A stretch of 64,000 nt of DNA, from assembly GCA_019454675.1 (NCBI GenBank), contig JACFNV010000001.1, positions 471 through 64,470 on the forward strand, in the 5' to 3' direction. The position numbers were made by a program, and so were the translations under genes. Positions 45,625 through 50,034 of the stretch are shown here, one piece after another (within the stretch, counting starts at the first letter, position 1; each line of letters begins with the position of its first letter). The notes beneath the pieces were generated by a model. The model was given only the letters and a program-made list of their open reading frames with translations. It did no database searches and had not been told where the DNA came from. Source of the DNA: Gammaproteobacteria bacterium. GTDB lineage: Bacteria; Pseudomonadota; Gammaproteobacteria; Steroidobacterales; GCA-2729495.

Positions 45625-46691
45625 CCGCTCCCAAGATTGCTTTTCTCGACCGCGATGGCACCCTGATCCACGAACCAGCCGACGAGCAGGTGGATCGCCT
45701 CGACAAGCTGGCGCTGGTCGAGGGCGTCATCCCCGCCCTGCTGCGCCTGCGCGATGCCGGCTACCAGTTCGTCATGGTGAGCAACCAGGACGGCCGTGGC
45801 AGCGCGAGCTTCCCCGAGGAAGACTTCCGCGTGCCGCAGGAATTCCTGCTGCAGCTGCTCGCCTCCCAGGGCATCCGCTTCCGCAAGATCTTCATCTGCC
45901 CGCACTTCCCCGCCGATGGCTGCAGCTGCCGCAAGCCGCGCACCGGGCTGCTGCGGGAGTTCCTCTCCTCGACGCCCATCGACCGCAGCGCCAGCGTGGT
46001 CATCGGCGACCGCGACAGCGACCTTGAGCTGGCCGCCAACCTCGGGCTGCGCGGCCTGCGCCTCGACCCGCGCGATCCGCAGGCCTGGCCCGCCATCGCC
46101 CACGAGCTGGTCGACCTGCCGCGCAGGGCGCACATCGATCGCGCAACGAAGGAAACCCGCATCAGCTGCAGCCTCGACCTCGACGCCGAGCAGCCGATCG
46201 ACATCCACACCGGCATCGCCTTCTTCGACCACATGATCGAGCAGCTGGCCCGGCATGGCGGCTTTGCCCTGCAGCTGCGCTGCGATGGCGATCTGCACGT
46301 GGACGAGCACCACACGGTGGAAGACACCGCGCTGGTCATCGGCGAGGCCCTGCGGCGGGCGCTGGGCGACAAGCGCGGTATCGCCCGCTACGGCTTCCTG
46401 CTGCCGATGGACGAGTCCCGGGCGCAGGTGGCCCTCGATCTTTCCGGGCGCGCCTGGTTCAGCTTCGAGGGCGGCTTCCCGCGCAGCGAGGTGGGCGGCC
46501 TGCCGACCGAGCTGGTACCGCACTTCTTCCGTTCGCTGGCCGACAGCCTGGGCGCCTCCATCCACCTCAGGATCGAGGGCGAGAACACCCACCACATGGT
46601 GGAGGCCTGCTTCAAGGCCATGGGGCGCACGCTGCGCCAGGCCCTGCGCCGCGAGGGTACCAGCCTGCCGAGCACCAAGGGCGTCCTGTGA
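45621..46691 (+). CDS. hisB: Bifunctional histidinol-phosphatase / imidazoleglycerol-phosphate dehydratase
   Basis: FLDRDGTL HAD motif, CSCRKP, FFDHM, DEHHTVED, N-HHMVEACFKA. Confidence 0.96.
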   Translation: MTAPKIAFLDRDGTLIHEPADEQVDRLDKLALVEGVIPALLRLRDAGYQFVMVSNQDGRGSASFPEEDFRVPQEFLLQLLASQGIRFRKIFICPHFPADGCSCRKPRTGLLREFLSSTPIDRSASVVIGDRDSDLELAANLGLRGLRLDPRDPQAWPAIAHELVDLPRRAHIDRATKETRISCSLDLDAEQPIDIHTGIAFFDHMIEQLARHGGFALQLRCDGDLHVDEHHTVEDTALVIGEALRRALGDKRGIARYGFLLPMDESRAQVALDLSGRAWFSFEGGFPRSEVGGLPTELVPHFFRSLADSLGASIHLRIEGENTHHMVEACFKAMGRTLRQALRREGTSLPSTKGVL

Positions 46692-47290
46692 GCCGCCCCC
46701 CGGTGGTCATCATCGACAGCGGCGGGGCCAACCTCGCCTCGCTGCGCTTCGCCCTGCAGCGGCTGGGCCGCGAGGCACTGGTCAGCACGGACCACGCGGT
46801 GATCCGTGCCGCCGAGCGCCTCATCCTGCCCGGTGTCGGTGCCGCCGCGGTGGCCATGGAGCGATTGGCAGCTGCCGGCCTCGATCGCCTGATCCCGACG
46901 CTGACCCAGCCCGTGCTGGGCATCTGCCTCGGCATGCAGCTGCTCTGCGAGGGTTCCGCGGAGGGCGATGTCAGCTGCCTTGGCGTACTGCCGGGCCGTG
47001 CCAGGCGCTTCGTTCCCGCGTCCGGCCGGCCGGTGCCGCACATGGGCTGGAACCGCCTGCAGACCACGGCGGGGCAGCCGCTGCTCGATGGCCTGCCGGA
47101 GAACCCCTGGTGCTATTTCGTCCACAGCTACGCGCTGCCGCCGACGACCGCCACCGTGGCCACCTGCGAGTACGGGGAGCGCTTTGCCGCCGCCATGCAC
47201 AGCGGCAACTTCCACGCCGTCCAGTTTCATCCCGAACGCTCGGGGACGACCGGCACCACCATCCTCGCCAACTTCCTCAATCTTTGCTGA
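46688..47290 (+). CDS. hisH: Imidazole glycerol phosphate synthase glutaminase subunit
   Basis: LILPGVG, LGICLGMQ, VPHMGWN, YFVHSY, QFHPERS. Confidence 0.96.
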   Translation: MSRPPVVIIDSGGANLASLRFALQRLGREALVSTDHAVIRAAERLILPGVGAAAVAMERLAAAGLDRLIPTLTQPVLGICLGMQLLCEGSAEGDVSCLGVLPGRARRFVPASGRPVPHMGWNRLQTTAGQPLLDGLPENPWCYFVHSYALPPTTATVATCEYGERFAAAMHSGNFHAVQFHPERSGTTGTTILANFLNLC

Positions 47291-47300
47291 AAAGGACATC

Positions 47301-48044
47301 ATGGAAGTCATTCCCGCCATCGATCTGCTGGGTGGACGCTGCGTACGTCTCTACCAGGGCGACTTCGGGCGCGTGACCAGCTACGACCGCGATCCACTGG
47401 AGATCGCTACCACCTACCAGCAGGCGGGCGCCGGCCGCCTGCACCTGGTGGACCTCGATGGTGCCCGCAGTGGCACGCCTGGCAACGCCGGCATCGTCCG
47501 CAGCCTGGCCGCGCGGCCGGGGCTGCGGCTGCAGGTCGGTGGTGGCATCCGCACGCTGGAAACCGCGCACATGCTCATCGCCGCCGGCGCCGAGCGCGTG
47601 GTGCTGGGCTCGGTGGCCATCAATGATCCGTCCACGGTCCTCGGCTGGCTCGCCACGCTGGGTAGCGAACGGGTGGTCCTTGCCTTCGACGTGCGGCTGC
47701 AGGGCGCGCAGGGCGAGCCCGTGGCGGTCACCCATGGCTGGCAGGAGTCGAGCGGCCGGCAGCTCTGGGAGCTGTTCGACATCTATCTCGCCGCCGGGGC
47801 CCGGCATTTCCTGTGCACCGACGTGGGCCGCGATGGCACCCTGGCCGGCCCCAACACCGCGCTTTACGCGGAGTGCCTGCGGCGCTATCCCGAGGCGAAG
47901 ATCATTGCCTCGGGCGGGTTGTCTTCGGCCGCCGACCTGCCGGCACTGGTGGAGGCCGGGGTGGCCGGCGTGGTGACCGGCAAGGCACTGCTCGAGGGAC
48001 GCCTGACACTTGAGGAGATAGGACCATTCTTGCGCACCGCATAA
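47301..48044 (+). CDS. hisA: ProFAR isomerase
   Basis: [47 protein letters not shown]. Confidence 0.95.
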
Positions 48045-48793
48045 TTCCCTGCCTCGACGTTCGCGACGGCCAGGTCGTCAAGGGCGTCCGTTTCCGCGAC
48101 CACCGCGTCATGGGCGGCATCATCGAGCTCGCCACGCGCTACCGCGACGAAGGCGCCGACGAGCTGGTGTTCTACGACATCAGCGCCAGCCCCGAGGGGC
48201 GTACGGTGGACCGCAACTGGGTGCATCGCGTCGCGGCCGTGCTGGACATTCCCTTTTGCGTGGCCGGGGGCATCCGCAGCGTTGCCGACGCCGAGGCCAT
48301 CCTCAACTTCGGCGCCGACAAGGTGTCGATCAACACGCCTGCGCTGGCCAACCCCGCGCTGATCGACGAGCTGGCCCAGCGCTTCGGCTCGCAATGCGTG
48401 GTGGTGGGCATCGACAGCCACGAGCAGGATGGCAGCTATCGCGTCTACCAGAACACCGGCGACCCGCAGCTGACGCGCGAGTCGGGCCGGGAAACCAGCG
48501 CCTGGGTGCGCGAAGTGCAGGAGCGCGGCGCCGGCGAGATCGTCCTCAACTGCATGAACCGGGATGGCGTGCGCGACGGCTACGACATCGCTCAGCTGCA
48601 GGCGATGCGCCAGATCTGCAACGTGCCGCTGATCGCCTCCGGCGGCGCCGGCACCATGGAGCATTTCTCCGCCGTCTTCCGCGAAGCGGGGGTGGACGGC
48701 GCGCTGGCAGCCAGTGTTTTCCATGCCGGCAGCATCCACATCGACGAGCTGAAGGCCTATCTGCGCACCCAGGGGATCGAGATCAGACCATGA
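48026..48793 (+). CDS. hisF: Imidazole glycerol phosphate synthase cyclase subunit (apparent ATT start)
   Basis: [I][53 protein letters not shown]; in-frame stop at 48011 and no ATG/GTG/TTG before 48110. Confidence 0.9.
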
Positions 48794-49083
48794 ACGACAC
48801 GGGCATTGGCTACCTGCAGGAGCTCGAGCAGGTCATCGAGCAGCGCAAGGGCGCTCCGGCCGACCAGAGCTACACCGCCAGCCTCTATGCCGCGGGCAGC
48901 TCGCGCATCGCGCAGAAGGTGGGCGAGGAAGCGGTGGAGCTGGCGCTCGCCAGCGTGCAGCCCGACCGCCAGCGCATCCTCTCCGAGGCCGCCGACCTCG
49001 TCTACCACCTGCTGGTGCTGCTGCGCCACCACGACTTCACGCTGGCAGACGTCAGCGCCGAGCTCAGCCGCCGCCGGCGCTGA
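48790..49083 (+). CDS. hisE: Phosphoribosyl-ATP pyrophosphatase (HisE domain only)
   Basis: [31 protein letters not shown]; no HisI cyclohydrolase domain. Confidence 0.92.
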
Positions 49084-49140: not shown

Positions 49141-50034
49141 ATGCAGGGCATGAACAAGCCCGCGGCAAGGCTCCATCAGAGCGGCAGGAAACACGAGAGC
49201 GACTGGCCGGGACTGGTCCTCGCCGCCTGCCGACTCATCGAGGCGGCGGATGACGAGGCCAATCTTGGCAGCATCCTGGAAACCCTCGGAGTCGGCGCGG
49301 CCGGCTTGCGCCGCCAGTTCCGCGCGCGGCTCGGCATCACGCCCGGTGCCTACCTGCAGGCGCTGCGCCTGGAGCGCCTGGTGCGTCGCCTCAACCACGA
49401 ACCCGATGTGCTCGCGGCCGTGCTGGGGGCTGGCTTCCAGTCCTCCACGCGCGCCTACGCCACGGTGCGCAAGGCCACCGGCCTGTCCCCCGGCCGGCTG
49501 CGCGACAGCCCGCGCATCGGCTGGTGGCTCGGCCTCTCGGAGCTGGGCTGGATGCTGATGGCGGCAACCCCCGCGGGCATCTGCTGGCTTGCCTTCGGCA
49601 GCTCGGCCCGCGAGCTGCTCGGCGGGCTGGCCGCCGCCTTTCCGCAGGCGCAGTGGATCGACGATAGCGCACGCCTGCACGGCTGGTTCGAGCGGGTGCG
49701 CGAACACCTCCTGTTGCCCGCCGCCGCCCTCGACCTGCCGCTCGACATCCGCGGCACCGCCTTCCAGGCACGGGTCTGGCAGGCGCTGCGCGACATCCCG
49801 CTGGGCGAGACCTGCAGCTATGGCGAGCTGGCGGGACGGCTGGGCAAGCCCAGCGCCACCCGGGCGGTGGCCGCCGCCTGCGGTGCCAACCGGGTGGCGG
49901 TGCTGATTCCCTGCCATCGGGTGATCGGTGCCGATGGCTCGGTCACCGGCTACCGTTGGGGCATCGCCCGCAAGCAGCAGCTCCTCGCACGCGAGCGGGA
50001 GGCCGCCGACGGACAGCCGGCGCAGTCTTCCTAG
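49141..50034 (+). CDS. Methylated-DNA-protein-cysteine methyltransferase with AraC-type HTH (Ada-like, lacks Zn domain)
   Basis: R-F---LGITP--Y, LDIRGTAFQ-RVWQAL, SYG-LA, RAVA-AC-AN, IPCHRVIG. Confidence 0.88.
   Translation: MQGMNKPAARLHQSGRKHESDWPGLVLAACRLIEAADDEANLGSILETLGVGAAGLRRQFRARLGITPGAYLQALRLERLVRRLNHEPDVLAAVLGAGFQSSTRAYATVRKATGLSPGRLRDSPRIGWWLGLSELGWMLMAATPAGICWLAFGSSARELLGGLAAAFPQAQWIDDSARLHGWFERVREHLLLPAAALDLPLDIRGTAFQARVWQALRDIPLGETCSYGELAGRLGKPSATRAVAAACGANRVAVLIPCHRVIGADGSVTGYRWGIARKQQLLAREREAADGQPAQSS

Follow-up and report, generated by a model that had tools for sequence, protein, structure and literature searches.

In the 64,000-nucleotide (nt) stretch of DNA analysed here (positions 471 to 64,470 of contig JACFNV010000001.1, from a Gammaproteobacteria metagenome-assembled genome (MAG), GCA_019454675.1; hereafter the window), the histidine biosynthesis gene hisF very probably starts at an ATT codon at position 48026, within the 3' end of the upstream gene hisA. 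The sequence points to AUU initiation that is directed by a Shine-Dalgarno (SD) sequence, is coupled to hisA translation, and represents an old state kept under purifying selection across most of the source's order. The sequence anatomy of the junction, its conservation among relatives, the translation of the codons after the ATT and the existing public annotation of the ATT start are direct observations. The features of the hisA-hisF junction are the following.

48026..48793, + strand: hisF coding sequence read from the ATT, 255 codons plus TGA; matches TIGR00735 and aligns to Thermotoga maritima HisF.
48026..48028, + strand: ATT, the putative hisF initiation codon, aligned with Met1 of solved HisF.
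48012..48017, + strand: candidate SD sequence GAGGAG (core AGGAG/GGAG), within Glu-Glu codons of hisA, with an 8-nt spacer to the ATT.
48011..48013, + strand: TGA in the hisF frame, five codons 5' of the ATT, which closes that frame.
47301..48044, + strand: hisA coding sequence, matching TIGR00007 at 229.6 bits (cut-off 228.95); its final 19 nt are shared with hisF.
48042..48044, + strand: TAA that ends hisA, lying within codons 6-7 of hisF (ATA ATT).
48027..48029, + strand: hisA codon TTC (Phe), which shares its second base with the third position of the putative hisF start codon.
48110..48112, + strand: first canonical in-frame ATG of the hisF frame, which opens an open reading frame of 227 amino acids (aa) at 48110..48793 and is a false start of the Prodigal type.

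The hisF frame reads TGA (48011-48013) GGA GAT AGG ACC ATT (48026-48028) CTT GCG CAC CGC ATA ATT CCC TGC CTC GAC GTT. Between the TGA and the ATT, the four codons GGA GAT AGG ACC include no ATG, GTG, TTG, CTG or ATH (ATT, ATC or ATA), and from the TGA onwards the frame has no ATG, GTG or TTG 5' of the ATG at 48110. The ATT lies 16 nt 5' of the hisA TAA. The assignment of the hisF start to the ATT follows from four points: no other start is available, the SD spacing is conserved, the codon itself is conserved across the order, and it aligns with Met1. An earlier sequence-only reading of the window had placed the start at this ATT, at the usual position of the Met, and these same four points support that proposal. 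Its positions for the TGA (48011), the GAGGAG (48012-48017), the 8-nt gap, the ATT (48026) and the ATG (48110) are all correct. It had also likened the overlap with the end of hisA to enteric operons, and the same 19-nt geometry is found in enteric and Vibrio loci.

The distribution of the ATT was surveyed by pattern scans in a 201-genome sample of the source's GTDB order. At the homologous hisF codon, 122 of these genomes have ATT, 12 have ATA, none has ATC, 20 have ATG and 18 have GTG; the remaining 29 gave no pattern match. ATT and ATA together account for 134 of the 201 genomes, or about two thirds. Two families are uniform for ATT (f1, 22/22; f4, 8/8), and two others have ATT in 20/21 (f11) and 18/20 (f22) genomes, the remainder being without a pattern match. 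Family f20 has 18 ATT and 2 ATA among 20 genomes. Canonical starts characterize family f2 (ATG) and family f21 (mostly GTG). By sequence and coordinates, f4 contains the locus L045, labelled 'Chromatiales', while f9-like loci correspond to Steroidobacteraceae MAGs and f11-like loci to Woeseiaceae MAGs. Among named records, the ATT state occurs in MAGs that carry the labels Steroidobacteraceae, Woeseiaceae, 'Chromatiales' and 'Gammaproteobacteria bacterium'.

Beyond the order, a scan of 401 genomes sampled from the class found the ATH pattern in 1 of approximately 397 Gammaproteobacteria. The codon is ATG or GTG in Xanthomonadales/Lysobacterales, Vibrionaceae, Enterobacterales and Pasteurellaceae. 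The lone match outside the order (G238:C1:18676-18710, ATACTTGCTAATCGCATTATTCCATGTTTAGATAT) comes from a tiny, A+T-rich, endosymbiont-sized genome of 0.4 Mb in another order, where the ATA may be either a start or an internal codon. The GGAG at -12 to -9 is common to the ATT lineages and to lineages with ATG, for example the enterics and Vibrio.

Some junctions within the ATT group have a different arrangement. In four f11 genomes of genus g43 (G084, G139, G172 and G179), hisA ends straight after the Phe, so that ATTCTGA is read as TTC TGA. This 7-nt overlap resembles the ATGCTGA of the Xanthomonadales, yet the ATT is kept. Two other junctions inside the ATT group are remodelled such that hisA stops before hisF; one of these has GTG (L038) and the other ATG (L042). 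The canonical starts at L038 and L042 fit a model in which AUU is sustained only together with overlap and coupling.

The sequence-only reading had left room for a point mutation or a sequencing error at the ATT. The source MAG is fragmented (191 contigs) and a single transversion separates ATT from ATG, so that an error, or a recent inactivating ATG-to-ATT mutation confined to this MAG, might be considered. Seven Logan assemblies, made independently from seven different SRA runs, refute this suggestion. These were the contigs that encode the 227-aa truncated HisF product, and in all seven the 132-nt junction is identical to the window, including the ATT. Comparison with orthologues, which the same reading had proposed, gives the same result. 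ATT is present in 27 of the 30 nearest relatives; the three exceptions are G008, which belongs to the same genus and has ATG, one f2 genome with ATG and one f13 genome with GTG. The genomes of the order with ATT or ATA include single-contig genomes. The remainder of hisF is intact in the window, and every catalytic residue is kept. Because the seven assemblies are identical and ATT or ATA is common across the order, an error or recent mutation is excluded for practical purposes, with a probability close to nil. Judged by these sequences, the ATT at 48026 is not an error or a lesion.

The protein read from the ATT is a complete HisF. It matches TIGR00735 at 344.3 bits (cut-off 294.55) over profile positions 2-254 of 254, and its residues 1-254 align with 1-249 of the T. 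maritima protein (2wjz, 1thf), with the ATT at Met1. Residue 1 also pairs with residue 1 of the HisF-LUCA reconstruction. In T. maritima numbering, the ammonia-gate residues of HisF are R5, E46, K99 and E167, and the catalytic residues are D11 and D130. All six are found in HisF read from the ATT, in the alignment segments mlahR, clDv, adElvf, gadKvsin, giDs and gagEiv. Among the 134 genomes with ATT or ATA, the amino acids of hisF codons 2-12 are conserved, and R5, P8, C9, L10 and D11 are invariant. The third bases of the same codons vary, with an entropy of 0.9-1.8 bits. Conserved amino acids with freely varying third bases show that codons 2-12 are read as protein in the hisF frame.

These observations bear on a shorter protein. 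HisF might be made as a 227-aa product from the ATG at 48110, with the upstream codons untranslated; this ATG is the sole ATG, GTG or TTG option in the frame, and it is the start in many gene calls from metagenomes (P0003-P0011). A start at this position would drop residues 1-28 and with them beta-strand 1, the gate residue R5 and the catalytic D11, as the sequence-only reading had noted for the strand and the Asp. The protein-level conservation of codons 2-12 with free third bases, and the alignment of residues 13-28 to solved HisF structures, indicate that the region upstream of this ATG is translated. Gene callers are also inconsistent among relatives, returning products of 227, 244 and 297 aa. 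Production of HisF from the ATG at 48110 is therefore highly improbable.

Public records contain both the full-length and the mis-called versions. A 255-aa HisF that starts at the ATT is on record for the contig of the window (P0002, listed for the 69,771-bp contig). The HisF proteins named by NCBI in relatives likewise begin with M at the ATT (P0016 at L012, P0044 at L007 and P0049 at L025), and it is on these records, together with the P0002 listing, that the statement about existing annotation is based. Prodigal-type callers give at least three wrong HisF products: one of 227 aa that starts at the internal ATG, one of 244 aa that starts at a GTG codon for Val12, and one of 297 aa that starts at an upstream GTG where the frame happens to be open. 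The 227-aa versions in metagenome collections are P0003-P0011, and wrong N-termini are also present in P0019, P0067 and others. Callers restricted to ATG, GTG and TTG thus mis-call HisF across a large, mostly uncultured clade. A mis-called HisF loses the catalytic Asp11, and an intact histidine pathway can then look broken in metabolic reconstructions. A literature search found no paper that describes an AUU/ATT start of hisF. Conserved non-canonical starts are known from other genes, and NCBI annotation already handles the one in hisF correctly. What the observation chiefly offers is a caveat for metagenome annotation and, possibly, a model of weak starts in overlapping genes.

The first codon of hisF departs from the usual pattern of Ile codons. 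Of the 97 Ile codons in this his operon, 87 are ATC, versus 0 of 134 at hisF codon 1. At codon 7, an Ile codon of hisF, the same genomes have ATT (66), ATC (55) and ATA (6; n=127). Changes were counted by parsimony on a 55-row HisF tree from which the N-terminal codons were left out. The third base of the start codon has 3 changes on this tree, whereas ordinary third bases have 12-22. Codon 6 likewise has 3 changes at its third base, which the embedded stop of hisA fixes. On the HisF protein tree, the ATT label is strongly clustered, with 6 changes between ATH and canonical codons, and none of 500 shuffles gave a value as low. This tree is unrooted and has an unresolved backbone, and it fits equally with gain of ATT, with loss of ATT, or with ATT as the ancestral state of the enteric-type HisF group.

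Codon 6 of hisF is ATA (48041-48043), a very rare codon that accounts for 2 of the 97 Ile codons of the operon; at codon 6 it is present in 109 of the 134 genomes with ATT or ATA starts. It is kept because the ATA-ATT pair contains the TAA stop of hisA. Lineages with CTG or TTA at codon 6 retain an embedded TGA or TAA.

The same ATAATT could itself be taken for the start. Initiation at the ATA at 48041 or the ATT at 48044, by termination and reinitiation at the A-TAA-TT of the hisA stop, would make the junction an AUAA analogue of AUGA; the motif is highly conserved, and the stop overlaps the ATA just as it does in AUGA junctions. The enterics and Vibrio have the same ATAATT with an ATG 15 nt upstream, and the Ile-Ile codons plus the hisA stop are sufficient to explain it. 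A start at 48041 or 48044 would also lose the invariant R5 and the conserved L2-A3, and the SD sequence would then be 23-26 nt away. Reinitiation at either codon is accordingly very improbable.

A programmed -1 frameshift near the end of hisA would produce a HisA-HisF fusion that needs no hisF start codon. The hisF frame is indeed -1 relative to hisA, and in many relatives it is open for 70-320 codons upstream, as is expected anyway at 69% G+C. The TGA five codons 5' of the ATT, which the window shares with at least eight relatives (L005, L007, L017, L021, L024, L025, L029 and L031), confines any shift to approximately 10 codons, and the codons between it and the ATT offer no plausible start in any of them. 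These codons contain no slippery heptamer of the form X XXY YYZ and show no sequence conservation. A frameshift would leave the conserved, correctly spaced SD sequence without a role, and the restriction of the codon to ATT and ATA would not be explained by it. Expression through a frameshift is very improbable on these grounds.

The best-supported account of initiation at the ATT is the following. The AGGAG/GAGGAG inside hisA, 8 nt 5' of the start, would direct initiation, and the normal initiator tRNA would decode the AUU at 48026 as formylmethionine (fMet), giving a protein that begins fMet-Leu-Ala-His-Arg-Ile-Ile-Pro-Cys-Leu-Asp-Val. Translational coupling would assist, with ribosomes translating hisA unfolding the site and terminating 16 nt 3' of the AUU at the TAA at 48042. 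The AUU, which is sometimes AUA, would be an old state held by purifying selection in most of the order, including the MAGs labelled Steroidobacteraceae and Woeseiaceae. We infer that the AUU is read as fMet, that its use depends on the translation of hisA, and that it makes the synthesis of HisF weaker and sensitive to initiation factor 3 (IF3). In Escherichia coli reporters, AUU gives expression 6-8 times below that of AUG and is a weak yet usable start (PMC3592434). In closely spaced cistrons, approximately half of the initiation at the second cistron comes from reinitiating ribosomes (PMC3592434).

The predicted cost of opening the region from -15 to +6 is 6.4 kcal/mol in the window, and such a cost fits a need for unfolding by the ribosomes that translate hisA. 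Across loci L001-L110, the predicted cost has a mean of 8.8 kcal/mol in the ATT lineages (n=41, G+C >=0.6) versus 12.3 kcal/mol in high-G+C ATG lineages (n=22). The lower value in the ATT lineages may be a compensation for the weak codon, a comparison that is confounded by phylogeny and is to be read as a hint only.

The gene for IF3 itself, infC, lies on the same contig, approximately 0.9-1.4 kb past the 3' end of the window (G000:C126:65362-65868, - strand; locus L111). It has no canonical start before the conserved domain. Its frame contains an in-frame TGA and then CGC ATA GCT GCC AAC AAG, with a GGAGG 8 nt 5' of the ATA and the first ATG 27 codons further in. From this arrangement, infC probably starts at the ATA, as would be expected if IF3 autoregulation operates in this organism. 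Since an ATA start of infC is the usual signature of IF3 autoregulation, a hisF started at AUU would in principle be sensitive to IF3. The sequence-only reading had suggested that HisF is translationally down-tuned or coupled to IF3, and both suggestions are plausible.

The reason for ATT rather than ATG is a separate question. Base sharing links the two genes at this position: in the overlapping hisA codon, ATT followed by C gives Phe (122 genomes), ATA followed by C gives Tyr (12), and ATG or GTG gives Cys (36) or Trp (2). ATC followed by C would encode Ser in HisA. Selection for T over G could therefore act, as far as the codons indicate, on the dosage of HisF, on HisA, or on both. The ATT may be the start and yet be a frozen by-product of dual coding, in which HisA needs Phe (TTC) or Tyr (TAC), this need forces ATT or ATA, and strong coupling to hisA makes the weak codon harmless. 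This explanation is possible, if somewhat unlikely. It is consistent with the presence of just ATT (Phe) and ATA (Tyr), and never ATC (Ser), in the 134 genomes, and with Cys or Trp in the ATG lineages. It is also consistent with the finding of ATT solely at codons that lie within the hisA frame; the remodelled junctions at L038 and L042 have GTG and ATG. Against it, the HisA tail right after the overlap residue varies freely (L, S, R or Q; 12 changes). HisA tolerates Cys in G008, within the same genus, and the non-overlapping loci L090, L098 and L085 carry Ser or Ala at the corresponding residue. The ATT is also retained where Phe is the last residue of HisA, in the four ATTCTGA genomes described above. 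It can be argued from the free tail, from the tolerance of Cys, Ser and Ala, and from the retention of ATT with a terminal Phe that selection is not mainly on HisA.

In the opposite case, the AUU or AUA would be an actively maintained throttle. The synthesis of HisF would be strictly dependent on ribosomes arriving from hisA and sensitive to IF3 fidelity, and the start codon would set the ratio of HisF to HisH and HisA. The state would have persisted through the history of an order-level clade because the nucleotide is locked by the aromatic codon of HisA. This is rather unlikely on the available sequences. If it were true, the position would be a dual-coding site with mutual constraint between the start codon of one barrel enzyme and a sense codon of its paralogue. 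The junction is a natural system in which weak starts inside overlaps could be examined, either as devices selected to set dosage or as tolerated side effects of dual coding.

Several points weigh against the reading of the ATT as a coupled start that is old and under purifying selection. The number and direction of the switches between ATT and ATG are uncertain, given the unresolved backbone of the HisF tree. The conservation of the third base of the start is not attributable to start function alone, as a hisA codon uses the same base as its second position. The missing ATC could reflect an intolerance of HisA for Ser and not a poor AUC start. Were the weak start neutral or harmful, ATG should have replaced ATT, being one transversion away and tolerated in G008 with Cys in HisA. 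For this last reason, any account of why ATT has been retained is something that we infer.

The start of hisF can be compared with known non-canonical starts. E. coli infC and pcnB have AUU starts with an SD sequence that are conserved among orthologues, decoded by the initiator tRNA, weak, and discriminated against by IF3. The AUU of hisF is similarly non-canonical, is served by an SD sequence at a functional spacing, and is conserved among orthologues. It differs in that it lies inside an upstream gene, 16 nt before the stop of that gene, with a third base shared with a sense codon. The AUU of infC belongs to a demonstrated autoregulatory loop, whereas a regulatory role of the AUU of hisF is putative. 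Few non-AUG starts conserved to such depth in a core biosynthetic gene are known, infC being the main one. Starts of the infC/pcnB class are treated in PMC5499595 and PMC3592434.

In Enterococcus faecalis, the true start of ebpA is a rare ATT, a downstream ATG had been annotated, and expression is reduced by the ATT (PMC4447247). The hisF junction likewise has an ATT start with a mis-called downstream ATG. The two cases differ in that the start of ebpA is proven by experiment, and in that ebpA is a pilus gene outside any overlapping biosynthetic operon. N-terminal proteomics of Deinococcus deserti found starts of housekeeping genes other than ATG, GTG and TTG that callers had missed (PMC2830850). 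Those starts are proteomically verified in a single genome, whereas the evidence for hisF is comparative and comes from more than 130 genomes.

The geometry of the junction is that of a coupled, overlapping gene pair, with the hisF start and SD sequence inside the hisA coding sequence and the hisA stop near the start. It is most similar to the enteric hisA-hisF junction (E. coli/Salmonella hisGDCBHAFI), with which it shares the gene order, a bifunctional HisB, the 19-nt overlap, the register of the GGAG and the ATAATT with its embedded TAA. Unlike the enterics, Vibrionaceae and Pasteurellaceae, which have ATG and a Cys in HisA, this order has ATT or ATA and a Phe or Tyr.

The remainder of the operon has canonical starts. 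By NCBIfam profiles, the gene order is hisD-hisC-hisB-hisH-hisA-hisF-hisE, and hisB is bifunctional. All remaining junctions of the operon start with ATG or GTG, mostly in ATGA or GTGA overlaps. The two genes that complete the neighbourhood of hisA and hisF are the following.

46688..47290, + strand: hisH, encoding the subunit that partners HisF; starts with GTG in a GTGA overlap with hisB, TIGR01855 match at 202.5 bits.
48790..49083, + strand: hisE, encoding phosphoribosyl-ATP diphosphatase; its ATG overlaps the hisF stop as ATGA, TIGR03188 match at 107 bits.

Downstream of hisF, only the HisE half (97 aa; 48790-49083, + strand) of the enteric HisIE is encoded. The HisI cyclohydrolase domain is not adjacent to hisE, and hisI must be located elsewhere in the genome. 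The next gene after hisE (49141-50034) is Ada/Ogt-like.

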